From assembly GCF_003991155.1 (NCBI RefSeq), contig NZ_CP031293.1: a DNA stretch of 64,000 nt; one strand, 5' to 3'. Made by a program: the position numbers and the translations under genes. This document shows, piece by piece, positions 1-60,170 of this stretch; the first letter of the stretch is position 1, and each line of letters begins with the position of its first letter. The notes under the pieces are model-generated. The model saw only the letters and a program-made list of their open reading frames with translations, searched no databases and was not told the DNA's origin. This DNA is from Escherichia coli (GTDB lineage Bacteria > Pseudomonadota > Gammaproteobacteria > Enterobacterales > Enterobacteriaceae).

Positions 1-720
1 ATGATCGCCAGTGAAATTAAGCAAAAACTGCATGTTGATGTTCAGGTCGGAGGCGCAGAAGCAGAAGCCGCCATTCAAGGGGCCTTGACTACCCCTGGAA
101 CCACACGTCCACTGGCAATTCTGGACTTAGGTGCAGGCTCTACCGATGCCTCCATCATCAATCAGAAAGGGGAAATTGTTGCCACTCACCTTGCGGGTGC
201 GGGCGACATGGTAACGATGATTATCGTTCGTGAGCTGGGCTTAAATGATCGTTATCTGGCAGAAGAAATCAAAAAGTACCCGTTGGCAAAAGTAGAAAGC
301 CTGTTCCACTTACGCCATGAAGATGGCAGCGTTCAGTTCTTCCCTACTCCCCTATCCCCCTATGTATTTGCCCGCGTCTGTGTAGTGAAACCCGACGAAC
401 TGGTGCCTATTCCCGGTGATTTGACGCTGGAAAAAGTACGCGCTGTTCGTCGCAGTGCGAAAGAGCGTGTCTTCGTAACCAATGCCCTGCGCGCGCTACG
501 TCAGGTAAGCCCTGCCGGAAATATTCGCGACATTCCGTTCGTCGTTCTGGTGGGCGGTTCTTCGCTGGATTTCGAAGTACCACAGTTAGTCACCGATGCA
601 TTGGCGCATTATCGACTGGTCGCCGGACGGGGGAATATCCGTGGTAGCGAAGGTCCGCGCAACGCGGTAGCTACTGGGCTACTCATCGCCTGGCACAAGG
701 AGTCGATTCATGGAAAGTAA
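1..720 (+). CDS. pduG: Diol dehydratase reactivase large subunit, C-terminal 239 aa (gene continues upstream of window)
   Basis: ORF runs from window edge; DLGAGSTD actin/Hsp70-like ATPase motif; followed by pduH-J-K order. Confidence 0.6.
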   Translation: MIASEIKQKLHVDVQVGGAEAEAAIQGALTTPGTTRPLAILDLGAGSTDASIINQKGEIVATHLAGAGDMVTMIIVRELGLNDRYLAEEIKKYPLAKVESLFHLRHEDGSVQFFPTPLSPYVFARVCVVKPDELVPIPGDLTLEKVRAVRRSAKERVFVTNALRALRQVSPAGNIRDIPFVVLVGGSSLDFEVPQLVTDALAHYRLVAGRGNIRGSEGPRNAVATGLLIAWHKESIHGK

Positions 721-1060
721 AGAGCGTGCACCAGCCATCGTCGTCATGGAGATCGGTAACTGCATCACTATATGGGATGAGGTGCTTCTTGGCATTGAAG
801 AGGAAGGTATTCCCTTTCGCATTCAACACATTCCGTCAGGTGAAGTTATCGATAGCGCCTGGCTGGCTGCTCGTCAATCTCCCCTGTTGGTTGGCATTGC
901 CTGCGATCAGGAAAAACTGATTGTGCATTACAAAAACTTACCACCATCAGCGCCACTGTTTACGCTGATGTATCAACAAGATAACCATGCCCGGCGCAGC
1001 ATCGGCACTAACGCTGCCCGCCTGGTAAAAGGAATTCCCTTCCGGGAATTCCACTCATAA
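710..1060 (+). CDS. pduH: Diol dehydratase reactivase small subunit
   Basis: 116 aa, start overlaps upstream stop; position between pduG and shell genes. Confidence 0.6.
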
Positions 1061-1079
1061 TCCACAGGAGAAACGCAGT

Positions 1080-1355
1080 ATGAACAACGCACTAGGACTG
1101 GTTGAAACAAAAGGGTTAGTTGGCGCAATTGAAGCTGCAGATGCCATGGTTAAATCCGCCAACGTGCAGCTGGTTGGCTATGAAAAGATTGGTTCGGGTC
1201 TGATTACGGTGATGGTCCGCGGTGATGTTGGTGCAGTAAAGGCCGCCGTGGATGCGGGGAGCGCTGCGGCAAGCGCAGTTGGCGAAGTGAAATCCTGCCA
1301 TGTCATCCCGCGCCCACACAGTGATGTTGAGGCTATTTTACCTAAATCGGCATAA
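1080..1355 (+). CDS. pduJ: BMC-H microcompartment shell protein
   Basis: 91 aa, canonical BMC domain ([25 protein letters not shown]). Confidence 0.8.
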
Positions 1356-1378
1356 CCCCATTTGCTAAGGAGCACAGC

Positions 1379-1801
1379 GTGAAGCAATCACTGGGATTAC
1401 TTGAAGTCAGTGGTCTGGCACTCGCCATCAGTTGCGCAGATGCTATGGCAAAAGCCGCGTCCATCACGCTGGTTGGCCTTGAGAAGACCAATGGCTCAGG
1501 CTGGACGCTCATCAAAATCACCGGTGACGTCGCCTCGGTTAATGCGGCGATCGCGACGGGAGCCAGTTTCGCCGGACAGCGAAATGGCCTCGTCGCACAC
1601 AAAGTGATTGCCCGTCCGGGAGACGGCATTCTGCCCCACACAACTAAAGCATTGACTGTGACGGTTGAAACAAGCGAAACACCAGCAACAACCGTCATCT
1701 CAGAGATTATCAGTTGTAATTTGTGTCTTGACCCGGCATGTCAGCGGCAAAAAGGTGAGCCCCGCTCACTTTGCCTGCACGCCAATAAGCGAGGGGAGTA
1801 A
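1379..1801 (+). CDS. pduK: BMC shell protein with Cys-rich C-terminal extension
   Basis: GTG start after AAGGAG RBS; N-terminal BMC domain; C-terminal CNLCLDPAC motif. Confidence 0.7.
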   Translation: MKQSLGLLEVSGLALAISCADAMAKAASITLVGLEKTNGSGWTLIKITGDVASVNAAIATGASFAGQRNGLVAHKVIARPGDGILPHTTKALTVTVETSETPATTVISEIISCNLCLDPACQRQKGEPRSLCLHANKRGE

Positions 1802-1803
1802 CA

Positions 1804-2436
1804 GTGGATAAACAAACCTTGCAGGAAACAGTGAGCCAGATTCTGGATGAGATGCGCGAGCGCCCTATCCCTCTGGGTGTTTCCAGTCGTCATATTCATC
1901 TTTCAACAGCGGATTATTTGCGTCTTTTTCCTGAACAACCGATTAGCGAGAAAAAGCCGTTAATGCAACCTGGCCAATTCGCTGCTGAACAGGTTGTTAC
2001 GCTGGAGGGACCAAAAGGTAAATTGCACAACGTTCGCTTGTTGGGGCCGCTACGCAATGCAAGCCAGGTGGAAATTTCCCGGACGGACGCCAGAACGTTA
2101 GGGATCACCGCCCCGCTACGCATGTCAGGCGATCTCAGCGGCACTCCAGGGATTCGTTTGGTAAGCCCATTTGCGGAACTGGAGATCACATCTGGCGTCA
2201 TTGTCGCGCAACGGCATATTCATATGTCTCCGCTGGATGCCCTGATTTATGGCGTTACGCATGGCGATAAAGTGGCGGTTGCCATTGAAGGTGATGAGCG
2301 ACGACTGATATTCGAAAACGTCGCTGTTCGCGTCTCTCCGGATATGCGTCTTGAAATGCATATTGATACCGATGAAGCCAACGCCGCAGGGGCTGATAGC
2401 CCTGACGTTTTTGCCACACTGGTGTCAGTGCCATGA
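1804..2436 (+). CDS. pduL: Phosphate propanoyltransferase
   Basis: 210 aa, GTG start; PduL-like sequence and operon position. Confidence 0.7.
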   Translation: MDKQTLQETVSQILDEMRERPIPLGVSSRHIHLSTADYLRLFPEQPISEKKPLMQPGQFAAEQVVTLEGPKGKLHNVRLLGPLRNASQVEISRTDARTLGITAPLRMSGDLSGTPGIRLVSPFAELEITSGVIVAQRHIHMSPLDALIYGVTHGDKVAVAIEGDERRLIFENVAVRVSPDMRLEMHIDTDEANAAGADSPDVFATLVSVP

Positions 2437-2924
2437 ATAACATGCTGATGCAACGTATTGTTGACGAAGTGGTTTTTCGCCTTAAACAACGTGCGGGAAA
2501 AACACTCGTGCTGACTGTTTTTCAACTGCGAGACGCCAGCGTTCAAGAGATAGTTCATCAGTATGCATCATTACAAATCCGATATGTCGATCTGCCGTTG
2601 TTACGACAACTTGCGGAGAACAAAACGTCAGATCGAGCAGCAATTCAGATACACGAAGCGTTAGCCTGGGGATTGCACATTCAATTGTCGTTGCAGCGTC
2701 ATTTCCTGAACGCCATTGAATTGAAGACTCTCGCCCGTCTACCGCTAAGCTGGTGCGACGAGCAAGGGCAACCGATCTACCTTCATCGTGATCGACTTTT
2801 AAGTTATGCCGATATTGCACAGTTAAGCTCGGGAATACTGGTGTTACAGCGAAAATGTTGTGTGACCGCACTGGCTCGTGAAGCGGCAATTACCCGAAAT
2901 ATTCAGTTAATCAGGCAGGAGTAA
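2433..2924 (+). CDS. pduM: Microcompartment structural protein PduM
   Basis: 163 aa, overlapping start; operon position. Confidence 0.6.
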   Translation: MNNMLMQRIVDEVVFRLKQRAGKTLVLTVFQLRDASVQEIVHQYASLQIRYVDLPLLRQLAENKTSDRAAIQIHEALAWGLHIQLSLQRHFLNAIELKTLARLPLSWCDEQGQPIYLHRDRLLSYADIAQLSSGILVLQRKCCVTALAREAAITRNIQLIRQE

Positions 2925-2927
2925 CCT

Positions 2928-3203
2928 ATGCATCTGGCTCGAGTCACTGGCGCGGTAGTATCCACGCAAAAATCACCTTCTCTGATCGGGAAAAAACTGC
3001 TGCTGGTTCGCCGGGTCAGTGCTGACGGCGAACTGCCTCTCACGCCATTAACCGGCGACGAAGTTGCCGTTGATTCCGTCGGCGCAGGCGTTGGTGAGTT
3101 GGTACTCCTCAGCAGTGGTTCCAGCGCCAGACATGTGTTTTCCGGCCCTAACGAGGCCATCGACCTGGCAGTGGTCGGCATTGTCGATACGCTTTCGCGC
3201 TAA
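2928..3203 (+). CDS. pduN: BMC vertex (pentamer) protein, EutN/CcmL family
   Basis: 91 aa, [16 protein letters not shown]-terminus typical of EutN/PduN. Confidence 0.75.
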
Positions 3204-3214
3204 GGAGCTGAAAG

Positions 3215-4222
3215 ATGGCAATTTATACCCGAACAGGTGATTCAGGAAGTACGTCTTTATTTACCGGACAGCGCGTCAGCAAAACTCATCTACGTGTCGA
3301 AACCTATGGCACGCTGGATGAACTGAACGCGACACTCAGTCTGTGTTATTGCGCCACCGCCATCGAAAGCCATCGCATCTTACTGGAAGCCATTCAACAA
3401 CAGATATTTTGGTTTAGCGCCGAACTCGCCAGTGAAAGCGAACAGCCGTCAGCGCAGCAGCGTTACATCGGTACGGAAGAAATTGCCGCGCTGGAAAACG
3501 CGATCGATAGCGCAATGAACGCCGTCCCCCCGGTTCACAGCTTCATTCTGCCTGGTCGATGTGAAGCTGCAAGCCGCATGCATTTCGCCCGCACGGTGGC
3601 TCGACGGGCTGAAAGACGTCTGGTTGAACTGACAACAGAAACCACCGTCCGGAATGTTTTGCTGCACTATATCAACCGACTTTCCGATTGCCTGTATGCC
3701 CTCGCCCGCGTGGAAGACAACGTTGCTCATCAAAACCTGATGATTCAGGAAATCACAAAACGTTATCACGAAGCCAACCACACACCAGCATTGAAGGAAC
3801 GCACAATGCCGCTCACTTTTCAGGATCTTCACCAGCTCATTCGTAGTGCGGCAATGCGCGCAGATGAACTGCATATTCCCGTTGTCATCAGCATTGTTGA
3901 TGCCAACGGAACAGAAAGTGTTACCTGGCGGATGCCTGATGCCCTGTTGGTCAGCAGTGAACTGGCACCGAAAAAAGCCTGGACCGCCGTGGCGATGAAA
4001 ACGGCAACCCACAAACTTGCTGATACCGTGCAACCCGGCGCGCCGCTTTACGGGCTCGAAAGCCATATGCAAGGCAAAGTCGTCACTTTTGGTGGCGGCT
4101 TCCCCCTCTGGCGTGACGGAAAATTGCTTGGCGGGCTTGGCATCAGCGGCGGTAGCGTTGAACAAGACATGGATATTGCCCAAAGCGCAATGGCGGCAAT
4201 TAACGTGGGAGTAAACCAATGA
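3215..4222 (+). CDS. pduO: ATP:cob(I)alamin adenosyltransferase with C-terminal DUF336-like domain
   Basis: 335 aa; PduO-type N-terminal domain (MAIYTRTGDSGSTSL) plus C-terminal domain. Confidence 0.75.
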   Translation: MAIYTRTGDSGSTSLFTGQRVSKTHLRVETYGTLDELNATLSLCYCATAIESHRILLEAIQQQIFWFSAELASESEQPSAQQRYIGTEEIAALENAIDSAMNAVPPVHSFILPGRCEAASRMHFARTVARRAERRLVELTTETTVRNVLLHYINRLSDCLYALARVEDNVAHQNLMIQEITKRYHEANHTPALKERTMPLTFQDLHQLIRSAAMRADELHIPVVISIVDANGTESVTWRMPDALLVSSELAPKKAWTAVAMKTATHKLADTVQPGAPLYGLESHMQGKVVTFGGGFPLWRDGKLLGGLGISGGSVEQDMDIAQSAMAAINVGVNQ

Positions 4223-5604
4223 ATAACTCTGAATTAGAAACACTGATCCGCAATATTCTGCGTGAGCAGCTTGCCCCCGCTACGCAACGAGCGCAAAGAA
4301 ACGCTATTTTCCAGACTGTTGATGAAGCGGTCTGCGCAGCGCACCAGGCCTTTTTACGCTTTCAACAGTGCCCGCTTAAAACCCGTAGCGCCATTATCAG
4401 CGCCATTCGCGAAGAATTAATGCCCCGCCTTACCGAACTGGCAGAAGAAAGCGCCAGTGAAACAGGGATGGGAAATAAAGAGGATAAGTATCTAAAGAAC
4501 AAAGCAGCACTCAATAATACGCCAGGAATTGAAGATTTAACCACCACTGCACTAACCGGTGATGGTGGCATGGTTTTGTTTGAATACTCCCCGTTTGGGG
4601 TTATTGGCTCGGTCACGCCAAGCACCAACCCCACGGAAACCATCATTAACAACAGCATCAGCATGCTGGCAGCAGGTAATAGCGTCTACTTCAGTCCACA
4701 CCCGGGAGCCAAATACGTTTCGTTAAAACTGATTACCACAATCGAAGACATCGCGTTTCGCTGTAGTGGCATTCACAACCTGATCGTTACCGTATCTGAA
4801 CCGACCTTTGCCGCCACCGAACAGATGATGGCGCACCCTAAAATCAGCGTTCTGGCGATTACCGGCGGTCCGGGGATCGTCGCCATGGGAATGAAAAGTG
4901 GCAAGAAAGTGATTGGTGCCGGTGCGGGTAACCCTCCGTGCATCGTCGATGAAACGGCGGATATTGTGAAAGCCGCCGAAGATATCATCAACGGCGCTTC
5001 ATTTGATTACAACCTGCCGTGTATCGCTGAAAAAAGCCTGATTGTCGTGGCATCAGTGGCAGAGTATTTAATTCAGCAGATGCAAAGTTTTGGCGCGCTT
5101 CTTCTTAACTATGAGCAAACGGAGAAATTGCGTGCAATTTGCCTGCCAGACGGTAGCGCCAACAAAAAACTGGTTGGGAAAAGCCCATCAGCCTTGCTGG
5201 AAGCGGCAGGCCTCCCTTTGCCCGCAAAAGCGCCGCGCCTACTGATTGCTGTTGTCGACGCCAATGATAGTTGGGTTACTTGTGAACAACTGATGCCAAT
5301 GCTGCCCATTGTGAAGGTCAACGATTTTGATAGCGCTCTCGCCCTGGCGTTGAAAGTGGAAGACGGCTTGCACCACACGGCAATTATGCACTCGCAGAAC
5401 GTCTCACGGCTCAACCTTGCCGCGCGCGTTATGCAAACCTCAATCTTTGTCAAAAACGGCCCCTCTTGGGCGGGTATTGGCGTCGGCGGCGAAGGCTTTA
5501 CGACCTTTACTATTGCAACACCGACCGGAGAAGGGACAACGTCAGCACGGACTTTTGCCCGCTCACGACGCTGTGTGTTAACCAGCGGCTTTTCAATTCG
5601 CTAG
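4219..5604 (+). CDS. pduP: CoA-acylating propionaldehyde dehydrogenase
   Basis: 461 aa aldehyde dehydrogenase family; operon position. Confidence 0.8.
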   Translation: MNNSELETLIRNILREQLAPATQRAQRNAIFQTVDEAVCAAHQAFLRFQQCPLKTRSAIISAIREELMPRLTELAEESASETGMGNKEDKYLKNKAALNNTPGIEDLTTTALTGDGGMVLFEYSPFGVIGSVTPSTNPTETIINNSISMLAAGNSVYFSPHPGAKYVSLKLITTIEDIAFRCSGIHNLIVTVSEPTFAATEQMMAHPKISVLAITGGPGIVAMGMKSGKKVIGAGAGNPPCIVDETADIVKAAEDIINGASFDYNLPCIAEKSLIVVASVAEYLIQQMQSFGALLLNYEQTEKLRAICLPDGSANKKLVGKSPSALLEAAGLPLPAKAPRLLIAVVDANDSWVTCEQLMPMLPIVKVNDFDSALALALKVEDGLHHTAIMHSQNVSRLNLAARVMQTSIFVKNGPSWAGIGVGGEGFTTFTIATPTGEGTTSARTFARSRRCVLTSGFSIR

Positions 5605-5614
5605 AGAAACGGAA

Positions 5615-6727
5615 ATGAATACTTTTTCACTGCAGACGCGTTTATACAGCGGACCAGGAAGTCTCAAGGTACTTAGCCGTTTCTCTCATAGACACATCTG
5701 GATTATTTGCGATGCCTTTCTGGCACACTCACCACTCATTGACACGTTGCATCAGGCGCTGCCAGACAGTAATCGTCTCAGTATTTTTAGCGAAATAACG
5801 CCCGACCCAACTATCCAGACCGTGGTGAAAGGCATTGCGCAAATGCAGACTTTACGCCCGGATGTGGTTATCGGTTTTGGCGGCGGTTCTGCCCTGGACG
5901 CCGCAAAAGCGATTGTCTGGTTTGGTCGCCAGTGTGGCATTGAAATTGAAACCTGCGTAGCCATTCCTACCACCAGCGGTACCGGTTCCGAAGTGACCAG
6001 TGCTTGTGTCATCAGCGATCCTGAGAAAGGGATTAAATATCCCCTTTTCGATAATGCACTTTATCCGGATATCGCGATCCTTGATCCATCTCTGGTCGTC
6101 AGCGTGCCACCGGCGATAACGGCCAATACCGGGATGGATGTTTTAACCCATGCGCTTGAAGCTTATGTTTCTCCTCGCGCCAGCGACTTCACGGATGCAC
6201 TGGTCGAAAAAGCCGTGCAAATTGTTTTTCAATACCTGCCCACTGCAGTGAAGAAAGGCGATTGTCTCGCCACCCGTGGCAAAATGCATAATGCATCGAC
6301 ACTTGCAGGAATGGCCTTTAGCCAGGCTGGACTGGGATTAAACCATGCAATTGCTCATCAACTCGGCGGACAGTTTCATCTGCCACACGGCCTGGCGAAT
6401 GCGCTCCTGCTCACGGCGGTTATCCGCTTTAATGCTGGCGATCCGCGCGCTGCCAAACGCTACGCCCGGCTGGCGAAAACGTGCCATTTATGCCCGGACA
6501 ACGCCAATGACACCGCCAGCCTGAATGCACTTATTCAACATATTGAACAGCTTAAAACAACCTGTACGCTGCCGACTCTTACCAATGCGCTGAAAGAAAA
6601 AAAAGCAGAATGGTCAATACGCATACCAGATATGGTTCAGGCGGCACTGGCGGATGCAACGTTGCGTACCAACCCGCGTGCGGCTGATGCCTCCGCGATT
6701 GCAGAACTGCTCGAGGAGTTGTTATGA
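5615..6727 (+). CDS. pduQ: Propanol dehydrogenase (iron-containing alcohol dehydrogenase)
   Basis: 370 aa, Fe-ADH motifs (GGGSALDAAK). Confidence 0.8.
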   Translation: MNTFSLQTRLYSGPGSLKVLSRFSHRHIWIICDAFLAHSPLIDTLHQALPDSNRLSIFSEITPDPTIQTVVKGIAQMQTLRPDVVIGFGGGSALDAAKAIVWFGRQCGIEIETCVAIPTTSGTGSEVTSACVISDPEKGIKYPLFDNALYPDIAILDPSLVVSVPPAITANTGMDVLTHALEAYVSPRASDFTDALVEKAVQIVFQYLPTAVKKGDCLATRGKMHNASTLAGMAFSQAGLGLNHAIAHQLGGQFHLPHGLANALLLTAVIRFNAGDPRAAKRYARLAKTCHLCPDNANDTASLNALIQHIEQLKTTCTLPTLTNALKEKKAEWSIRIPDMVQAALADATLRTNPRAADASAIAELLEELL

Positions 6728-8067
6728 ACGTCGAGTTAACCTCCTGCGACGACCAGACCATCCGCGAGCGAGTACAGGCAGCAGGTGTCGTGGGTGCTGG
6801 CGGGGCAGGTTTTCCAACCCATATTAAGCTACAAGCGCGTGTTGACACGTTCCTGGTGAATGCGGCGGAATGCGAACCCATGTTGAAAGTGGATCAACAG
6901 TTAATGGTGCAGCAAGCCAGCCGCCTGCTTCGCGGTGTTCACTATGCGATGAAAGCCACCGGGGCCAGTAGCGGAATCATCGCGCTGAAAGAGAAATATC
7001 AACGGGCAATAAACGCACTCACACCACTGTTACCACCGGATATCCGCCTGCATATTTTGCCCGATGTTTACCCCGCAGGAGACGAAGTGCTGACCATCTG
7101 GATGGCAACTGGTCGCCGCGTTCCACCCGCTGCATTACCCGTTAGCGTCGGTGTGGTGGTCAATAATGTTCAAACCGTACTTAATATTGCCAGAGCCGTC
7201 GAGCAACAGTATCCAGTGACGCGCCGCACACTCACTATTAATGGTGCAGTGGCGAAACCAATAACGGTAACCGTCCCCATCGGCATGTCTTTCCGTGAAG
7301 TCCTGGCGCTGGCGGGCGGCGCAACAGTAGATGCTCCTGGTTTTATCAATGGCGGGCCGATGATGGGAAGTTTGATCACATCGCTCGACACACCCGTCAG
7401 CAAAACCACTGGCGGCTTGCTGGTTTTACCCAACTCTCATTCACTGATCCAACGTCGAATGCAGAATGACCGCAGCGTACTTACCGTCGCGAAAACTGTT
7501 TGTGAGCAATGCCGCTTGTGTACCGATCTCTGCCCACGTCATTTAGTCGGTCACGAACTGGCCCCCCATTTATTAGTACGTGCGGTTAACTACCAACAGC
7601 TCGCTACGCCACAACTGTTACTGACGGCGCTCACCTGTTCGGAGTGCAACGTCTGCGCCAGCGTCGCCTGTCCGGTAGGAATTTTACCAATGCGCATAAA
7701 CCGCCTGCTTAAGCAGGAATTACGCGCACAAAATCTCCGCTACGAAGGTGCCTTAAATCCTGCAGATCCCTTGGCAAATTATCGACTGGTTCCCGTAAAA
7801 CGGCTGGTAACCAGACTGGGCTTAACCCCGTGGTATCAGGATGCGCCATTGTCTGAACAGGTGCCTCAGCCCGAAAAAGTGACGTTATTGTTACGCCAGC
7901 ACATCGGTGCCAGCGCAATTGCGTGTGTACAAAAAGGCGATCGCGTCGTTCATGGGCAATGTGTAGGTCAAATTCCACACGGCACATTAGGTGCCCCCAT
8001 TCATGCCAGTATTGATGGCATGGTCAGCGATGTGACAGAAAACGCGATTACGCTTGTGAGAGGTTAA
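6724..8067 (+). CDS. pduS: Cobalamin reductase, RnfC-like Fe-S flavoprotein
   Basis: 447 aa with two Cys clusters ([25 protein letters not shown]). Confidence 0.75.
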
Positions 8068-11871: not shown

Positions 11872-13044
11872 TCAGGCCTTATGGTGGAAATAATCACTCA
11901 GCCGGGAAAACATGCTGCCTTCCCCGACAGATTCCAGGGTAACCAGCGGCCAGTGCGCCACCTGTTTATCACGGTCGTAAAGTTCAATTTCCCCTACCCG
12001 CTGATGGGCGCTAATTGGCGCGGTGAGTTCTTTACCATCAAGGGTATATTTGGCTTTGATATGTGGAATTTCGGCTTTCGGTAGCACCATCCAGAACTCT
12101 TGTTCCGTTCCCAGGGCGATATTTTCTTTATCGCCATACCAGATGCGTTCCGTACCAACCTTTTTCCCACGGTGCAAAATTTGCACCGTAGTAAAGTTTT
12201 GTTGCCCCCAACGCAGTAATTTTCTTGCCTCTTCCTCACGACCTTTTGCGCTGTCAGCCCCCATTACCACTGCAATGAGACGACGCTGCCCATCTACAGC
12301 CGAAGCAATGAGATTAAACCCGGCACCAGAAGTATGACCCGTTTTCAGGCCGTCAACATTCATGGTTTTATCCCACAATAACCCGTTACGGTTTTGCTGG
12401 GTGATACCGTTCCAGGTGAGGCTTTTCTCACTGTACATATGATAAAACTCGGGCTCGCCGTGGATGATAGCGCGAGAAAGCACAGCTAAATCATAAGCCG
12501 AGCTATGCTGGCCAGGTGCATCCAGACCATGCACTGTTTCAAAATGCGTATCCTTGAGATGCAGCTTCTCGGCATAGTTGTTCATCATTTCAACAAACTG
12601 CCGTTGCCCACCGGCAATATAGTCAGCCAGAGCAACACAAGCGTCATTTCCGGAATCCACAATTAAACCACGGCTTAAATCACGTACCGATACGCGATCG
12701 CCCTCTTTCAGAAACATCAGTGAAGAACCGACAAACACCGGATTATCTTTCGCCCACGCATCGCGCCCCACGGTGACAATATCGTCTGGCGTAATGCGAT
12801 GACTATCGATAGCACGATCCACGACATAGCCCGTCATCAGCTTTGTCAGGCTGGCGGGATTGCGCTGTTGATGCTCATTACCCGCGGTGAGAATCTGACC
12901 GGTGGTGTAATCCATCAATACCCAGGACCCGGCATGAATCTCTGGAGGCTGAGGTGAAAAAGGAATGTTTTCCGCCGCAAAACCAGACGATAAATTAAAA
13001 ACGAACAAAGAAGCAGCAATAATAAGACGGCGTTTCAACAGCAA
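11872..13044 (-). CDS. dacD: D-alanyl-D-alanine carboxypeptidase DacD (PBP6b)
   Basis: 390 aa with signal peptide and SLTK/SGN motifs. Confidence 0.9.
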   Translation of the reverse strand: MLLKRRLIIAASLFVFNLSSGFAAENIPFSPQPPEIHAGSWVLMDYTTGQILTAGNEHQQRNPASLTKLMTGYVVDRAIDSHRITPDDIVTVGRDAWAKDNPVFVGSSLMFLKEGDRVSVRDLSRGLIVDSGNDACVALADYIAGGQRQFVEMMNNYAEKLHLKDTHFETVHGLDAPGQHSSAYDLAVLSRAIIHGEPEFYHMYSEKSLTWNGITQQNRNGLLWDKTMNVDGLKTGHTSGAGFNLIASAVDGQRRLIAVVMGADSAKGREEEARKLLRWGQQNFTTVQILHRGKKVGTERIWYGDKENIALGTEQEFWMVLPKAEIPHIKAKYTLDGKELTAPISAHQRVGEIELYDRDKQVAHWPLVTLESVGEGSMFSRLSDYFHHKA

Positions 13045-16292: not shown

Positions 16293-16391
16293 TTAATTTG
16301 CTCCAGATACAAGGAATCGCCGCAGCATGGCTACGGTGAATTTTGGGCATAAAAAACCCAGCCGAAGCTGGGTCGTTGCGTTGGTTATCTG

Positions 16392-17321
16392 TCAGTAGTT
16401 ATGTACTGAAGGAGGTAATTCTTTATTCTTAAGTCTCATCCATGCGGAAAGATTCGTTGGTCCGTCTGGCTCATTGATATCAACATCTCGTGTGTGATTG
16501 ATTAAAACGTCTCTCGCCATTCCGATAACATACGAGAACTCATGACCATAGTCGTAGCATCTGCCGGAATAGTTCGATTGAATTTGTTTTAATGCCGGAT
16601 ACAGTTCGCGGAATAACGCCTGTGAGCGGTTGGCATAATCCCATAACCATACAAGGCTGTTTGCTTCTTTTGCAGAAAGCTCGTTGGTTTTCTTCTCTTG
16701 TTTGCCAATGAACTCACCTTCAAGCGGAACGCGAGCAGCAAGTGACAGTGCTTCGGTAAACTGCTCATCACTGATTTCTTTGTACGAACATCCAAAATGG
16801 GATTTCAGTGACGACCACATGGTGATCATCGCCTTCGCCTGTTTTTCTTTTGGCAGAGACTGACCGCGACTCATGACGAGTTGTTTAATGGCTTCCTGCT
16901 GTTCAGTGGTGATTTTACCCGGCAACGCCTTTTTAGCTTTGCGTGGGTTAACTACATGGCCTTTAGTCCAGTACTCGTAGAGCACATCGTCACACTCTTC
17001 CTGATACTGGATTACCTTGTCGCGGATTTCAGGGCGGACTTTGTTTGGACTGATGGTTTGCAGCCAGCCAGCAAGTTTGCGAAGTGCCAAACAAATAATC
17101 TCACGGCACTGTTCATCACCAGGAAGCTGCATTGTGATTTTCACAATGGAGGTTTTAAACCGTTGCTTTATTTTCGTAAACTGTGAAGCCCAATCCATAC
17201 CCATACCTTCAACGATAGGTTTCATTGGGGTGTACGGCTCACCGTTGTGATTGACGACATAAAGCTCTGCGCCGTGGAATGGCACGTTGATAGTAGATAC
17301 TGCTGTTGCTATACTTTTCAT
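16392..17321 (-). CDS. ant: Antirepressor Ant (P22 immI)
   Basis: 309 aa, [24 protein letters not shown]22 Ant-like. Confidence 0.85.
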
Positions 17322-17386
17322 GTCAGTTTTTCCTCAAAATTTACTGGCGATTTAAGCCCGAGCTACTCGCAATAGCTTGGGCTTTA
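17318..17386 (+). ncRNA. sar: Candidate sar-like antisense RNA across the arc-ant intercistronic region
   Basis: Intercistronic hairpin GCCCGAGCTA..TAGCTTGGGC antisense to ant RBS; analogy to P22 sar; ends approximate. Confidence 0.3.
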
Positions 17387-17387
17387 C

Positions 17388-17534
17388 TCATTCTGGACAA
17401 ACAATTCCATCCTTAGCTACTGACTCCTTTAGTCTCCTCAATACCTCATTACTGAACGACCGATCATCCTTTTTCGCGGACTGCTCCAAAGCCTTTTCCA
17501 GCCATTCTGGCATCCTTAATGTCTTAACTTTCAT
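17388..17534 (-). CDS. arc: Arc-like ribbon-helix-helix repressor
   Basis: 48 aa from MKVKTLRMPEW with AAGGAG RBS; upstream of ant. Confidence 0.7.
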   Translation of the reverse strand: MKVKTLRMPEWLEKALEQSAKKDDRSFSNEVLRRLKESVAKDGIVCPE

Positions 17535-17646
17535 TTTTGCTCCTTTGCTCCTTTGTATGTGGTACGCATACATAGTATTTAGGTACGCATTGATAGTCAA
17601 TAGATACCTACATATCCTGTGGTAAATAATTATTCAGGATGCGCCG

Positions 17647-17898
17647 ATGTCTGATCGTAAGTACAAAAACCCTCAAGTGAATCTGAGGCTTCCTGTAGAG
17701 ATAAAGGAACGTCTTATTGAGCTGGCTGAGGCTAATTCTCGTTCATTAAATGCTGAGATGGTAGCAGCACTTGAGGCATGGACTGAAAAAAATAAACATA
17801 TTCAAGCACTAGATATTGCAACTATAGCATCGCGGTTGATAGAGCTTGAGCATGAGGTTGAGAAGTTAAAATGTATGCATGGCAACGGTGAAAAATGA
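17647..17898 (+). CDS. mnt: Mnt-like ribbon-helix-helix maintenance repressor
   Basis: 83 aa, NLRLPVEIKERLIELAEANSRSLNAEMVAALEAW; divergent from arc-ant. Confidence 0.7.
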   Translation: MSDRKYKNPQVNLRLPVEIKERLIELAEANSRSLNAEMVAALEAWTEKNKHIQALDIATIASRLIELEHEVEKLKCMHGNGEK

Positions 17899-18209
17899 AA
17901 CGCATCGCTATTTTGTTAATATTGTTCTTCTCTACAATAGTTTGCGCCAAACAAAAATCAGATAATGGCGATCTTAAAGGCCTGCAAGAACTCATGATAA
18001 CTTCGAAATTTGCTGGCATGTGCGGCACAATCAAACAAATGGCAACATTTCAAGAATCAACAAAAATGCCTGGCGGAGATGAGTTCTTACAGCGTTTTCT
18101 GACCACAGAGCAAGCAAGACTTGGAATGAATCCACAGGAGTTTCTTGAAGCATGCCAGAAGTCAATTTCAGCTTATACCAATTATTACAATCTAACTTCT
18201 GATAAATAA
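17895..18209 (+). CDS. Small exported protein of unknown function, translationally coupled to mnt
   Basis: 104 aa; ATGA overlap with mnt stop; signal peptide MKRIAILLILFFSTIVCA. Confidence 0.5.
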   Translation: MKRIAILLILFFSTIVCAKQKSDNGDLKGLQELMITSKFAGMCGTIKQMATFQESTKMPGGDEFLQRFLTTEQARLGMNPQEFLEACQKSISAYTNYYNLTSDK

Positions 18210-18234: not shown

Positions 18235-18720
18235 ATGAAAAAATCACTATTAATTATCCCGCTTCTGCTGGCTGGATGCGCAAAAGTAAGTGACTACCAA
18301 GCAAGTTGCGAACAACGCTATCCAAAGCTTAGTGATATGGCTAATTGCCTTGATGCCAGCGTGAAGAACGACTCACGCATGGCATCAGCACCAACACCTA
18401 AGCTGTATGTCCTTGCTGCGAAGATGCTCGGGCAAGGTGTCGATGAAGGCAAGATAAGTGACGCACAGGCAAGACTTGAGCTTCAGAATCTTTATGTTCA
18501 ATTACAAAGCCAAGAACAAGCCCAACAAATAGCGCAAAGCCAAGCATTCCAGCAGGCTTTATTGAATTATCAGGCTGTAAACACAATGCAAGCGATCGAG
18601 CAAAAAGCGCGCCAGCCTGTTATAACTCAACCTTACCCAACACGCGTTGACACATATACAAACTGCAATTCAGGATTTGGAAACACCGTCACATGCAACA
18701 GTAGCAGCAACATTAGATAA
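18235..18720 (+). CDS. Lipoprotein of unknown function (lipobox LLAGC), Gln-rich C-terminal half
   Basis: 161 aa; MKKSLLIIPLLLAGC signal and lipobox; downstream of mnt in same orientation. Confidence 0.5.
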   Translation: MKKSLLIIPLLLAGCAKVSDYQASCEQRYPKLSDMANCLDASVKNDSRMASAPTPKLYVLAAKMLGQGVDEGKISDAQARLELQNLYVQLQSQEQAQQIAQSQAFQQALLNYQAVNTMQAIEQKARQPVITQPYPTRVDTYTNCNSGFGNTVTCNSSSNIR

Positions 18721-43538: not shown

Positions 43539-44189
43539 ATGAAAACTCAATTGATGGGAGAGCGCATTCGCGCTCGGAGAAAAGAACTCAAGATCAGGCA
43601 GGCCGCACTTGGAAAGATGGTCGGCGTGTCTAATGTTGCCATATCTCAGTGGGAACGCTCTGAGACAGAGCCAAATGGAGAGAATCTTCTCGCCCTGGCT
43701 AATGCGTTGAAGTGTTCCCCTGACTATCTGATGAAAGGAGAGGAAAGTCTTTCAAACATTGCCTATCACAGTAGGCATGATCCAAGAGGGTCATACCCTC
43801 TGATTAGCTGGGTGAGCGCAGGATGCTGGATGGAAGCTGTAGAACCATATCATAAGCGTGCAATAGATAACTGGTACGATACAACCGTAGACTGTTCAGA
43901 AGATTCGTTTTGGTTGGATGTGAAGGGAGACTCAATGACGGCTCCGGCCGGTCTCAGTATCCCTGAAGGAATGATAATACTCGTCGATCCTGAAGTAGAG
44001 CCGCGTAACGGGAAACTGGTAGTTGCAAAGCTCGAAGGAGAAAACGAGGCAACTTTCAAGAAGTTAGTTATTGATGCAGGCAGGAAGTTTCTAAAACCAC
44101 TTAACCCACAATATCCGATGATCGAGATCAACGGAAACTGCAAAATCATCGGCGTAGTTGTCGATGCAAAACTAGCAAACCTTCCATAA
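43539..44189 (+). CDS. c2: C2 repressor (P22-type, LexA-like autocleaving)
   Basis: 216 aa, HTH N-domain and S24 peptidase C-domain. Confidence 0.95.
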   Translation: MKTQLMGERIRARRKELKIRQAALGKMVGVSNVAISQWERSETEPNGENLLALANALKCSPDYLMKGEESLSNIAYHSRHDPRGSYPLISWVSAGCWMEAVEPYHKRAIDNWYDTTVDCSEDSFWLDVKGDSMTAPAGLSIPEGMIILVDPEVEPRNGKLVVAKLEGENEATFKKLVIDAGRKFLKPLNPQYPMIEINGNCKIIGVVVDAKLANLP

Positions 44190-51691: not shown

Positions 51692-51883
51692 ATGACCGAT
51701 ACCAGCCTGATTCCTGAGAAAGAAGTGATGAACAAGCTCGGTGTTTCATCACGTCAGACAATCTGGAACTATACCAAACGGCACGGATTTCCGAAGCCAG
51801 TCAGAACCCACCCCAAATCATACCTTCGTGAAGCTGTTGAAGGGTGGATTCTTAACGGTGGCGTTAATCAGAAATGCTCCTGA
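51692..51883 (+). CDS. xis: AlpA-family excisionase / DNA-binding regulator
   Basis: 63 aa with HTH (LGVSSRQTIWNYTKRHGFPKP); adjacent to integrase. Confidence 0.7.
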   Translation: MTDTSLIPEKEVMNKLGVSSRQTIWNYTKRHGFPKPVRTHPKSYLREAVEGWILNGGVNQKCS

Positions 51884-53042
51884 TGTGCCAGAACAATTTA
51901 TCAGCGTGAAGCTCATACGCTTTGCGCTGAGCCTCTATCCAGTCGTGTTTATTGTATACGGACATTATCCCGCCAAGTTCATGACCGAGCATTCGCTCAG
52001 TAACATGAGGCTCGACATTCATCTCGGACAGACGTGTAACAAGCGTTCTTCTGAAATCGTGTGTTCGCCAGTAACCTAGATCCATCCCTCCCCTTATTCT
52101 ATTTACGAATCGGTTGGCTGCAGCGATGCTGATCGGTTTGTTTATGTCTTCTCCAGGGAAAAGAACATCATTGTACGTTGTCATGGCCTTTTCGAGGAAA
52201 GGCTTAATTTGTTCGAAGATTGGACGGCGGATAGCATTACCCATCTTGCTATGCTCTTTCGGTACGGTCCATACGTTTTCCAGCAGGTCAAATTCTGTCT
52301 TTTTTGCCAGCCTAAGCTCTGAGAGCCTCGCCCCCCACAGCATAAGCATCTGATGAAGTAGCTTATTTGACGTAGACGCACGGCTTCTTTCAATAGCAAG
52401 CCAAATCTTAGCCAGTTCGTGATACGACAGTACACGATCCCCTACCTCAGCGCGGGAGCCGAAGTCCCTTGGTTGGATGCTCATAATTGCGCAACTATCT
52501 ATCAACTGACGCCGCATGCACCAACTTATTGCTGATCTTAGTTGACTTAGCACCTGCCTTGCTCGGCGTGGATTATCTCTTTCTTCTTCGGTAAGCAGGT
52601 CAACCCATTGCTTAACCGTGATAGAAGATGCCGGACGATTAGGGAAGGCGTCATGCATGCGCTTCATAACCGTTGATCGGTAAAGTGCCTGGGTCTTTTC
52701 TCTGAGAGTTGTAGAGACGTAGTTGTCGAACCAGTAGTCGAGACACTGGGCGACCGTCATGGAGTTCTCCACCTTCTCTTCAAAATAAGTGCGTGGATCC
52801 GTTCCTGAGAAATAGAGCTTTCGCAAGTCAGCAGTGATCTGTCTGGCATCCTTCAAAGACATGGATGGGTATCGACCAAGCCCAAGTCGATTAGGCTTGC
52901 CATGCCAGCGATAGCGGTACTGGAACTGGATGACCCCCTTCGGTGAAATTCGTACGCTGAGGCCATCGGCATCAGCCACTTCTTGTGGGCCCGAATATGG
53001 TTTACCATAAATAGTACGAAGTTTTGTGTCGCTTATAGCCAT
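51864..53042 (-). CDS. int: Tyrosine site-specific integrase
   Basis: 392 aa; C-terminal HDFRRT...LGH catalytic region; next to right junction. Confidence 0.9.
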   Translation of the reverse strand: MAISDTKLRTIYGKPYSGPQEVADADGLSVRISPKGVIQFQYRYRWHGKPNRLGLGRYPSMSLKDARQITADLRKLYFSGTDPRTYFEEKVENSMTVAQCLDYWFDNYVSTTLREKTQALYRSTVMKRMHDAFPNRPASSITVKQWVDLLTEEERDNPRRARQVLSQLRSAISWCMRRQLIDSCAIMSIQPRDFGSRAEVGDRVLSYHELAKIWLAIERSRASTSNKLLHQMLMLWGARLSELRLAKKTEFDLLENVWTVPKEHSKMGNAIRRPIFEQIKPFLEKAMTTYNDVLFPGEDINKPISIAAANRFVNRIRGGMDLGYWRTHDFRRTLVTRLSEMNVEPHVTERMLGHELGGIMSVYNKHDWIEAQRKAYELHADKLFWHIRSISD

Positions 53043-53223: not shown

Positions 53224-54648
53224 ATGACAGACACAGATAAACAACCTACCTTCCTCTTTCACGATTACGAAACCTTTGGAACGCACCCCGCGTTAGATCG
53301 CCCTGCACAGTTCGCAGCCATTCGCACTGATAACGAATTCAATGTCATCGGCGAACCCGAAGTCTTTTACTGCAAGCCCGCGGATGACTATTTACCCCAG
53401 CCTGGAGCAGTATTAATTACCGGTATTACCCCGCAGGAGGCACGGGCGAAAGGAGAAAACGAAGCCGCGTTTGCCGCCCGTATTCACTCGCTTTTTACCG
53501 TACCGAAGACCTGTATTCTGGGCTACAACAATGTGCGTTTCGACGACGAAGTCACACGCAACGTTTTTTATCGTAATTTCTACGATCCTTACGCCTGGAG
53601 CTGGCAGCATGATAACTCGCGCTGGGATTTACTGGATGTTATGCGTGCCTGTTATGCCCTGCGCCCGGAAGGAATAAACTGGCCTGAAAATGATGACGGT
53701 CTACCGAGCTTTCGCCTTGAGCATTTAACCAAAGCGAATGGTATTGAACATAGCAACGCCCACGATGCGATGGCTGATGTGTACGCCACTATTGCGATGG
53801 CGAAACTGGTAAAAACGCGTCAGCCACGCCTGTTTGATTATCTCTTTACCCATCGTAATAAACACAAACTGATGGCGTTGATTGATGTTCCGCAGATGAA
53901 ACCCCTGGTTCACGTTTCCGGAATGTTTGGGGCATGGCGTGGCAATACCAGCTGGGTGGCACCGCTGGCGTGGCATCCTGAAAATCGCAATGCCGTAATT
54001 ATGGTGGATTTGGCAGGAGACATTTCGCCATTACTGGAGCTGGATAGCGACACATTGCGCGAGCGTTTATATACCGCAAAAGCCGATCTTGGCGATAACG
54101 CCGCCGTTCCGGTTAAGCTGGTGCATATCAATAAATGTCCGGTACTGGCCCAGGCGAATACGCTACGCCCGGAAGATGCCGACCGACTGGGAATTAATCG
54201 TCAGCATTGCCTCGATAACCTAAAAATTCTGCGTGAAAATCCGCAAGTGCGTGAAAAAGTGGTGGCGATATTCGCGGAAGCCGAACCGTTTACGCCTTCA
54301 GATAACGTGGATGCACAGCTTTATAATGGCTTTTTCAGTGACGCCGATCGTGCAGCAATGAAAATTGTGCTGGAAACCGAGCCGCGTAATTTACCGGCAC
54401 TGGATATCACTTTTGTTGATAAACGAATTGAAAAACTGTTGTTCAATTATCGAGCGCGCAACTTCCCGGGGACGCTGGATTATGCCGAGCAGCAACGCTG
54501 GCTTGAGCACCGCCGCCAGGTCTTCACGCCAGAGTTTTTGCAGGGCTACGCTGATGAATTGCAGATGCTGGCACAACAGTATGCCGATGACAAAGAGAAA
54601 GTGGCGCTGTTAAAAGCGCTTTGGCAGTACGCGGAAGAGATTGTCTAA
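53224..54648 (+). CDS. sbcB: Exodeoxyribonuclease I; first ~11 codons supplied by the prophage
   Basis: 474 aa; N-terminus MTDTDKQPTFLFHDYETFG differs from the remnant MMNDGKQQSTFLFHDY at attL. Confidence 0.9.
   Translation: MTDTDKQPTFLFHDYETFGTHPALDRPAQFAAIRTDNEFNVIGEPEVFYCKPADDYLPQPGAVLITGITPQEARAKGENEAAFAARIHSLFTVPKTCILGYNNVRFDDEVTRNVFYRNFYDPYAWSWQHDNSRWDLLDVMRACYALRPEGINWPENDDGLPSFRLEHLTKANGIEHSNAHDAMADVYATIAMAKLVKTRQPRLFDYLFTHRNKHKLMALIDVPQMKPLVHVSGMFGAWRGNTSWVAPLAWHPENRNAVIMVDLAGDISPLLELDSDTLRERLYTAKADLGDNAAVPVKLVHINKCPVLAQANTLRPEDADRLGINRQHCLDNLKILRENPQVREKVVAIFAEAEPFTPSDNVDAQLYNGFFSDADRAAMKIVLETEPRNLPALDITFVDKRIEKLLFNYRARNFPGTLDYAEQQRWLEHRRQVFTPEFLQGYADELQMLAQQYADDKEKVALLKALWQYAEEIV
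53257..53269. repeat. attR core (13-bp identity with attL)
   Basis: TTTCACGATTACG inside sbcB codons 12-16. Confidence 0.6.
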
Positions 54649-57527: not shown

Positions 57528-57793
57528 GGTCATTCTCCTTTACGGTGATAACCGTCGCGTAAGCAAAAAATTGCCCCATTTTTTTGGATTCCTCAGCGAC
57601 AACAACTGTCGATTTTTAGTAAATATCTATCCGGTACGAAGCCCGGCCTCTTGGTATGAATGATTGGTTTGAAGCAAAAAATAACCGACGCTAATTAAAC
57701 GTCGGTTTTTAGTCATTTTTTGACAGCGGCGCATTGTGCCTAAATGGGGGGGAAATGACAAGAGAATGAGAGGCTTGTCATAATAATTTTTCT

Positions 57794-60019: not shown

Positions 60020-60070
60020 ATGACACGCGTTCAATTTAAACACCACCATCATCACCATCATCCTGACTAG
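60020..60070 (+). CDS. hisL: his operon leader peptide
   Basis: MTRVQFKHHHHHHHPD with seven consecutive His codons. Confidence 0.9.
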   Translation: MTRVQFKHHHHHHHPD

Positions 60071-60170
60071 TCTTTCAGGCGATGTGTGCTGGAAGACATT
60101 CAGATCTTCCAGTGGTGCATGAACGCATGAAAAAGCCCCCGGAAGATCACCTTCCGGGGGCTTTTTTATT
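60071..60170 (+). promoter_or_regulatory. his attenuator including terminator hairpin
   Basis: Hairpin AAAGCCCCCGGAAGATCACCTTCCGGGGGCTTTTTT at 60132-60170. Confidence 0.8.

Follow-up and report, generated by a model that had tools for sequence, protein, structure and literature searches.

The immI region of the prophage

The window, i.e. the whole 64-kb stretch of Escherichia coli DNA analysed here, contains a P22-like prophage of approximately 40 kb located between dacD and sbcB. The following genes and regulatory features of this prophage surround the spacer between arc and ant:

16355-16374, minus strand: intrinsic terminator after ant, an 8-bp stem followed by TTTTAT (terminator scan)
16392-17321, minus strand: ant, antirepressor of 309 amino acids and putative target of the antisense RNA described below (Pfam P22_AR_N, E 7e-45; P22_AR_C, E 5e-30)
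17388-17534, minus strand: arc-like gene, 48 amino acids, ribbon-helix-helix repressor (Pfam Arc, PF03869, 25.1 bits, cut-off 20.4)
17551-17630, both strands: divergent control region between arc and mnt (promoter scan and repeat search)
17600-17572, minus strand: candidate Pant, TTGACT-17-TACTAT
17590-17618, plus strand: candidate Pmnt
17647-17898, plus strand: mnt-like gene, 83 amino acids, diverging from arc and ant (Pfam Arc, E 3e-10)

With ant, arc and mnt together, this is a P22-type immI region. The ant gene is an intact open reading frame with both Pfam domains present, and the P22 record (BK000583) annotates an ant terminator at the place equivalent to 16355-16374. The start codon of ant (ATG, 17321-17319) and the stop codon of arc (TGA, 17390-17388) are both on the minus strand. 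The control region contains a 21-bp tandem direct repeat (17561-17581 and 17582-17602), an 18-nt inverted repeat (17576-17593 and 17597-17614) and a 9-nt inverted repeat (17551-17559 and 17567-17575). All three overlap candidate Pant and Pmnt, which were assigned by analogy with P22. On the same grounds the repeats are probably the operators of Arc and Mnt, although the operators of P22 have sequences unlike them.

A predicted antisense RNA in the arc-ant spacer

The plus strand of the spacer, opposite to arc and ant, harbors a predicted small RNA together with a promoter-like site located within ant:

17287-17292, plus strand: -35 hexamer of the putative promoter Psar, TTGATA, within ant codons 10-12 (sigma-70-like site scan)
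17307-17315, plus strand: extended -10 of Psar, TGcTATACT, over ant codons 3-5 (Ser-Ile-Ala, AGT ATA GCA) (sigma-70-like site scan and alignment)
17322-17388, plus strand: predicted sar-like antisense RNA, approximately 67 nt (Rfam RF00262, covariance model R2, fold z-score)
17322-17348, plus strand: stem-loop I, GUCAGU (17322-17327) paired with ACUGGC (17343-17348) around a 15-nt loop (17328-17342) (minimum free energy structure)
17331-17335, plus strand: anti-Shine-Dalgarno sequence UCCUC in loop I (read from the sequence)
17354-17384, plus strand: stem-loop II, the putative sar terminator hairpin, 12 bp with one G·U pair and loop CUCGCAA, followed by UUUACU (fold, repeat search and covariation)

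The 5' end of the predicted RNA follows from the geometry of the promoter, and its 3' end (+/-2 nt), which overlaps the arc stop codon, was placed by analogy with the 68/69-nt RNA of P22. The 67-nt plus-strand sequence has a minimum free energy of -24.8 kcal/mol, compared to -11.5 +/- 2.3 kcal/mol for shuffled sequences (z -5.9; 0 of 200 dinucleotide shuffles as good), and its minimum free energy structure consists of exactly two helices, in agreement with the Rfam consensus and the fold of P22 sar. The UCCUC of loop I complements the Shine-Dalgarno sequence of ant (GAGGA, minus strand, 9 nt upstream of the ATG); the predicted RNA as a whole is fully complementary to ant positions -1 to approximately -67, the Shine-Dalgarno sequence included.

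The initial annotation, made by eye, had reported a spacer of 66 bp with a stable hairpin antisense to the ribosome-binding site of ant. The spacer indeed measures 66 bp (17322-17387, between arc stop and ant ATG), and the hairpin was found as described, with GCCCGAGCTA at 17356-17365, loop CTCGCAA at 17366-17372, TAGCTTGGGC at 17373-17382 and one G·U pair, G17360·T17378. Two further A-T pairs lengthen it to the 12 bp listed above. The repeat search likewise returned this hairpin. The assignment to the plus strand of the spacer holds, but the hairpin lies at the arc-proximal end of the spacer and not opposite the ribosome-binding site. It is another hairpin, at the 5' end (17322-17348) and missing from that annotation, whose loop displays the complement of the Shine-Dalgarno sequence.

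Stem-loop II exhibits compensatory changes in 8 of 13 pairs among relatives, and the homologous stretch of P22 is annotated in BK000583 as the sar terminator. The hairpin was not called by the terminator scan because its U-run is too short: no more than three U come after the stem. This is a weak point, but the short U-run is also found after the terminator of P22 sar, and we therefore do not count the missed call against a sar homologue.

Between 16300 and 18000, no sigma-70-like site is better than the putative promoter (TTGATA-17-TATACT, extended by TG), which has 10 of 12 matching positions; the region contains 4 promoter-like sites against 2.9 expected, which is no enrichment of the class. 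The putative promoter occupies nucleotides 7-35 of ant, so that the predicted +1 falls on G17322, directly beside the ATG. A four-way alignment of the window, P22, SEN22 and CUS-3 shows TTGCTATACT to be invariant, with flanking codons that vary. The -10 hexamer is likewise conserved in 78 of the 80 loci that were collected by similarity to the Ant protein, a few loci having TAAACT or TACACT. Read on the other strand, this hexamer corresponds to ant codons 3-4 (AGT ATA). ATA is the rarest isoleucine codon in E. coli, and its retention at codon 4 fits a second constraint on these bases.

Comparison with sar of P22 and related phages

The reference for this interval is sar of the Salmonella phage P22 (Rfam RF00262; Liao et al. 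1987, Wu et al. 1987 and Schaefer & McClure 1997, as cited in PMC2629481). Sar of the window and of P22 are alike in being antisense to the arc-ant intercistronic region, in an identical extended -10 (TGcTATACT), and in a body of two stem-loops with the anti-Shine-Dalgarno sequence in loop I and a terminator hairpin that abuts the arc stop codon. According to BK000583, P22 sar begins at the base that precedes the ant ATG and reaches two bases into the arc stop codon, and its terminator is located in the arc-proximal half of the spacer, as in the window. Psar of P22 lies at ant nucleotides 7-35 with the sar 5' end at ant nucleotide -1, and the offsets in the window are the same. The lengths are also close, approximately 67 nt predicted for the window and 68/69 nt for P22 (PMC12197685).

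The initial annotation had regarded the P22 arrangement as conserved, and had named promoter prediction in the 5' end of ant and alignment to P22 sar as checks. Both bear it out: the plus-strand prediction returned the Psar-like site at 17287-17315, the aligned RNAs are homologous with 71% identity, and sar, Psar, terminator and ant start occupy homologous positions in both elements.

The differences concern sequence. Stem I, loop I, and the stem and loop of the terminator all differ between the window and P22. The -35 hexamer of the window (TTGATA) is better than the one of P22, which reads GTGTTA at the equivalent position, because ant is two codons shorter there. Arc of the window is divergent and has 48 amino acids, compared to 53 in P22, and the host of the window element is E. 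coli instead of Salmonella. Among other Salmonella phages, epsilon34 harbors the same module with sar and Psar annotated by similarity to P22; its sar is of the P22 type, unlike that of the window. The closest arc-sar region among deposited phages is found in the Salmonella phage SEN22 (85% identity over the region, 90% over the sar RNA). No sar is annotated in SEN22, whose copy also scores below the Rfam gathering score (32.4 bits).

Homology search and sampling of relatives

The Rfam sar model yields a full-length match (model positions 1-68) at 17322-17388 on the plus strand with 29.3 bits and an E-value of 0.0069. This is less than the gathering score of 43 bits, a cut-off that is operational and not a biological feature. 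The clade formed by the window, SEN22 and locus L012 scores 28-32 bits with this model, compared to 62-98 bits for relatives of the P22, CUS-3 and GUCAAUA types. For a second covariance model (R2), 56 relatives were used and the clade of the window, i.e. all window-type sequences, was omitted. Searched against the whole 64-kb window, R2 identifies 17322-17390 (40.9 bits, E 2e-7); apart from the mirror image of this match, the next one has an E-value of 0.31. The window RNA is a divergent member of the known sar family, agreeing with it in every structural and positional feature and falling short only of the Rfam score cut-off.

Relatives were collected in two ways. A scan of IMG/VR for the Psar -10 together with the ant start (TTGCTATACTNNTCATGT, 16 specified bases) gave 120 loci with approximately 66 distinct sar-like sequences. 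These loci were fished with the motif and are hence no test of its conservation; a second sample of 80 loci was therefore drawn by similarity to the N-terminal part of the Ant protein. In 64 loci of the latter sample a model match on the antisense strand ends at the base before the ATG, and by inspection 78 loci have the two-hairpin body together with the -10. Nine loci of the motif scan (L043, L045, L051, L053, L060, L061, L062, L068 and L092) are without a sar-like body and were treated as chance matches to the pattern. A crude filter also removed L030, L049 and L075, of which L030 is sar-like and was restored by hand. L049 contains a window-type copy (3591-3656) whose identity lasts as far as the 3' arm of the terminator (…CAATAGG) and is lost beyond it, as though the terminator hairpin had been broken by a deletion or by recombination.

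The closest complete E. coli genome (NZ_OZ040490.1, 2075315-2078707) is 98% identical over the region. In this genome ant is split into a pseudogene and a separate C-terminal open reading frame, arc, mnt and the spacer are kept, and the RefSeq record annotates no RNA at the position of sar.

Structural conservation

All 66 distinct variants, folded singly and thus independently of any alignment, give two hairpins, and in each of them helix I starts at the predicted +1. The arms of helix I differ between variants (GUCAGU/ACUGGC, GUUGGU/ACUGAC, GUCAAUA/UGUUGAU, GUCGU/ACGAU and GUCUU/GGGAC). When 58 distinct sequences are aligned under guidance of the model, 98.2% of the cells are paired, and both partners vary in 14 of the 19 pairs, all 6 of helix I included. 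None of 500 shuffles reaches the observed values, and partners slid against each other are only 18-52% paired; these covariation statistics are inflated, since A5 and A6, the alignments used, had been fitted to the structure of the model and consist of related sequences. An earlier model alignment (A4, E <= 1) was discarded for mirror-image terminator matches on the opposite strand. RNAalifold applied to a MAFFT-only alignment of 40 variants recovered helix II and missed helix I, the 3' arms of which were misaligned by MAFFT.

Proposed function and alternative explanations

We conclude, with a probability of about 0.85, that a homologue of P22 sar, i.e. a small cis-antisense RNA, is encoded in the interval. 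The conclusion is based on homology, anatomy, promoter position, conserved structure and strand. Its transcription, exact ends, translational block and biological role we infer from the work on P22, where sar has been detected by small-RNA sequencing (PMC13397905) and pairs with the arc-ant mRNA to block initiation of Ant translation (PMC12197685, PMC7968456, PMC11016777 and PMC2629481). By analogy, RNA polymerase would start at Psar, opposite the first codons of ant, initiate at G17322, and produce a transcript of approximately 67 nt that crosses the whole arc-ant spacer and ends at the terminator hairpin. The RNA would fold into the two stem-loops and present UCCUC, the complement of the ant Shine-Dalgarno sequence, in loop I. 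Pairing with the arc-ant mRNA would cover ant positions -1 to approximately -67 including the ribosome-binding site, and would prevent initiation of antirepressor translation. The C2-type repressor of the prophage (43539-44189) would thereby be spared from inactivation, and sar would constitute a post-transcriptional layer beneath the transcriptional control by Arc and Mnt.

Three other explanations were considered. It is unlikely that the interval is a sar homologue by descent which is inert in this prophage, either untranscribed or no longer needed. The split ant of the nearest RefSeq relative in E. coli, with arc and spacer kept, indicates that immI modules do decay. Ant of the window is nevertheless intact, with 309 amino acids and both Pfam domains; neither the helices nor the TG motif nor the promoter hexamers are damaged; and the exact sar sequence of the window recurs in 13 of the 80 independent IMG/VR loci, with the region present at 90-98% identity in 34 complete E. 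coli genomes.

The second explanation, quite improbable in our view, does without an antisense RNA and lets the hairpin work solely within the arc-ant mRNA, where it might stabilise the intercistronic region, be processed by an RNase or partially terminate transcription between the two genes. Every antisense structure has its counterpart in the complementary transcript, and the hairpin forms on the minus strand as well (-19.6 kcal/mol, z -2.7). However, this fold is weaker than the one of the plus strand (-24.8 kcal/mol, z -5.9) and is not followed by a U-run. In the mRNA, C and A face each other unpaired where sar has its G·U pair, and across the relatives 191 cells are G·U on the sar strand, compared to only 2 A·C cells, which correspond to G·U on the mRNA strand. 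Moreover, a strong conserved promoter is directed from ant into the spacer, and its predicted +1 is exactly where helix I begins in all variants. It is on the plus (sar) strand that the structure is selected. A chance palindrome in the AT-rich spacer, suggested by nothing beyond the general frequency of short hairpins, can be dismissed in view of the z-score of -5.9 with 0 of 200 shuffles as good, the full-length matches to two independent covariance models and the position identical to that of P22 sar. A REP-like element was also considered, and was rejected on the basis of strand asymmetry, promoter and exclusive immI context.

The working of the immI region is textbook knowledge, to which the sar homologue of the window adds nothing new. 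Its significance is one of annotation and diversity: at the gathering score the Rfam sar model misses the clade of the window, although this clade is recurrent in E. coli prophages and would be recovered by a broader Rfam seed. The sar family is much more diverse than the curated model, and sar control appears to reach well beyond the Salmonella P22-type sequences.

Relation to other phage antisense RNAs

Two further small RNAs of phages resemble sar in function. The c4 RNA of P1 and P7 also blocks the ribosome-binding region of an ant mRNA; its complementary bases are shown in loops, and differences in sequence define heteroimmunity (PMC12197685). Unlike sar, c4 is encoded upstream in the transcript of its own target and acts through short complementary patches, whereas sar is a convergent cis-antisense RNA with full complementarity. 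No relationship in sequence between c4 and sar was found, sar being the only Rfam family that matches the interval. The OOP RNA of lambda is, like sar, a short cis-antisense RNA with its own promoter and terminator that lowers a regulator of the lysis-lysogeny decision (PMC12197685). In contrast to sar, OOP overlaps the 3' end of cII and does not occlude a ribosome-binding site; its action involves RNase III-dependent decay according to the title of Krinke & Wulff 1987, as given in the reference list of PMC3134472.

Mosaic junctions and an array of antirepressors

Among the 80 loci of the Ant-similarity sample (L125-L204), identical 42-nt segments comprising Psar and the 5' end of ant are followed, from exactly +1 onward, by at least three unrelated sar bodies. 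This junction is sharp, and a second one is found just past the terminator, where the 3' end of arc, or other DNA, switches type. The junctions are at positions of approximately 560-745 of each locus, corresponding to 17280-17400 of the window. The calculated duplexes between a sar and a non-cognate leader have less than half of the cognate energy.

An IMG/VR contig (L073, IMGVR_UViG_2839585306_000004, positions 1-6000) combines at least four sar-like units with four antirepressor genes that follow them. The antirepressors have the architectures P22_AR_N, Bro-N, KilA-N+ANT and KilA-N+P22_AR_C, which indicates that sar-type control is not tied to one antirepressor family. The two-hairpin units are on the strand opposite the antirepressor genes, with model matches at 1012, 2158, 3070 (weaker) and 5006. 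A further match at 5683 precedes an open reading frame of 85 amino acids without a Pfam match, and three Arc-like genes are located among the array.

Taken together, the junctions, the energies of non-cognate duplexes and the array of L073 raise the possibility, which we regard as tentative and rather doubtful, that sar and the matching ant leader form an exchangeable specificity cassette. If this were the case, antisense 'immunity classes' would be set by the sar type, much as by c4 in P1 and P7, and the variant of the window would represent one such class, insulated from sar of the P22 type. The mosaic junctions and the multi-antirepressor array are thus a lead on the evolution of antisense specificity in phage immunity regions.

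Prophage and chromosomal surroundings

The following features of the prophage and its flanks are located elsewhere in the window:

11872-13044: dacD
43539-44189: C2-type repressor of the prophage
51864-53042: integrase of the prophage
53224-54648: sbcB
57674-57748, minus strand: STnc240 sRNA
60046-60169: his leader

The tailspike of the prophage carries the P22 head-binding domain. No tRNA gene was found anywhere in the window, hence the prophage is not inserted at a tRNA attachment site. The flank bearing sbcB is 99.3% identical to E. coli chromosomes. A group of pdu-type genes at 3215-8067 encodes a PduO-like adenosyltransferase, aldehyde and alcohol dehydrogenases, and an RnfC/Complex1_51K protein. 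Directly after mnt, two open reading frames on the plus strand (17895-18209 and 18235-18720), both without a Pfam match, have N-termini resembling signal peptides, and the second contains a lipobox-like LLAGC. At the place of these two open reading frames, P22 has sieA and the hkc genes within the 'ant moron'.
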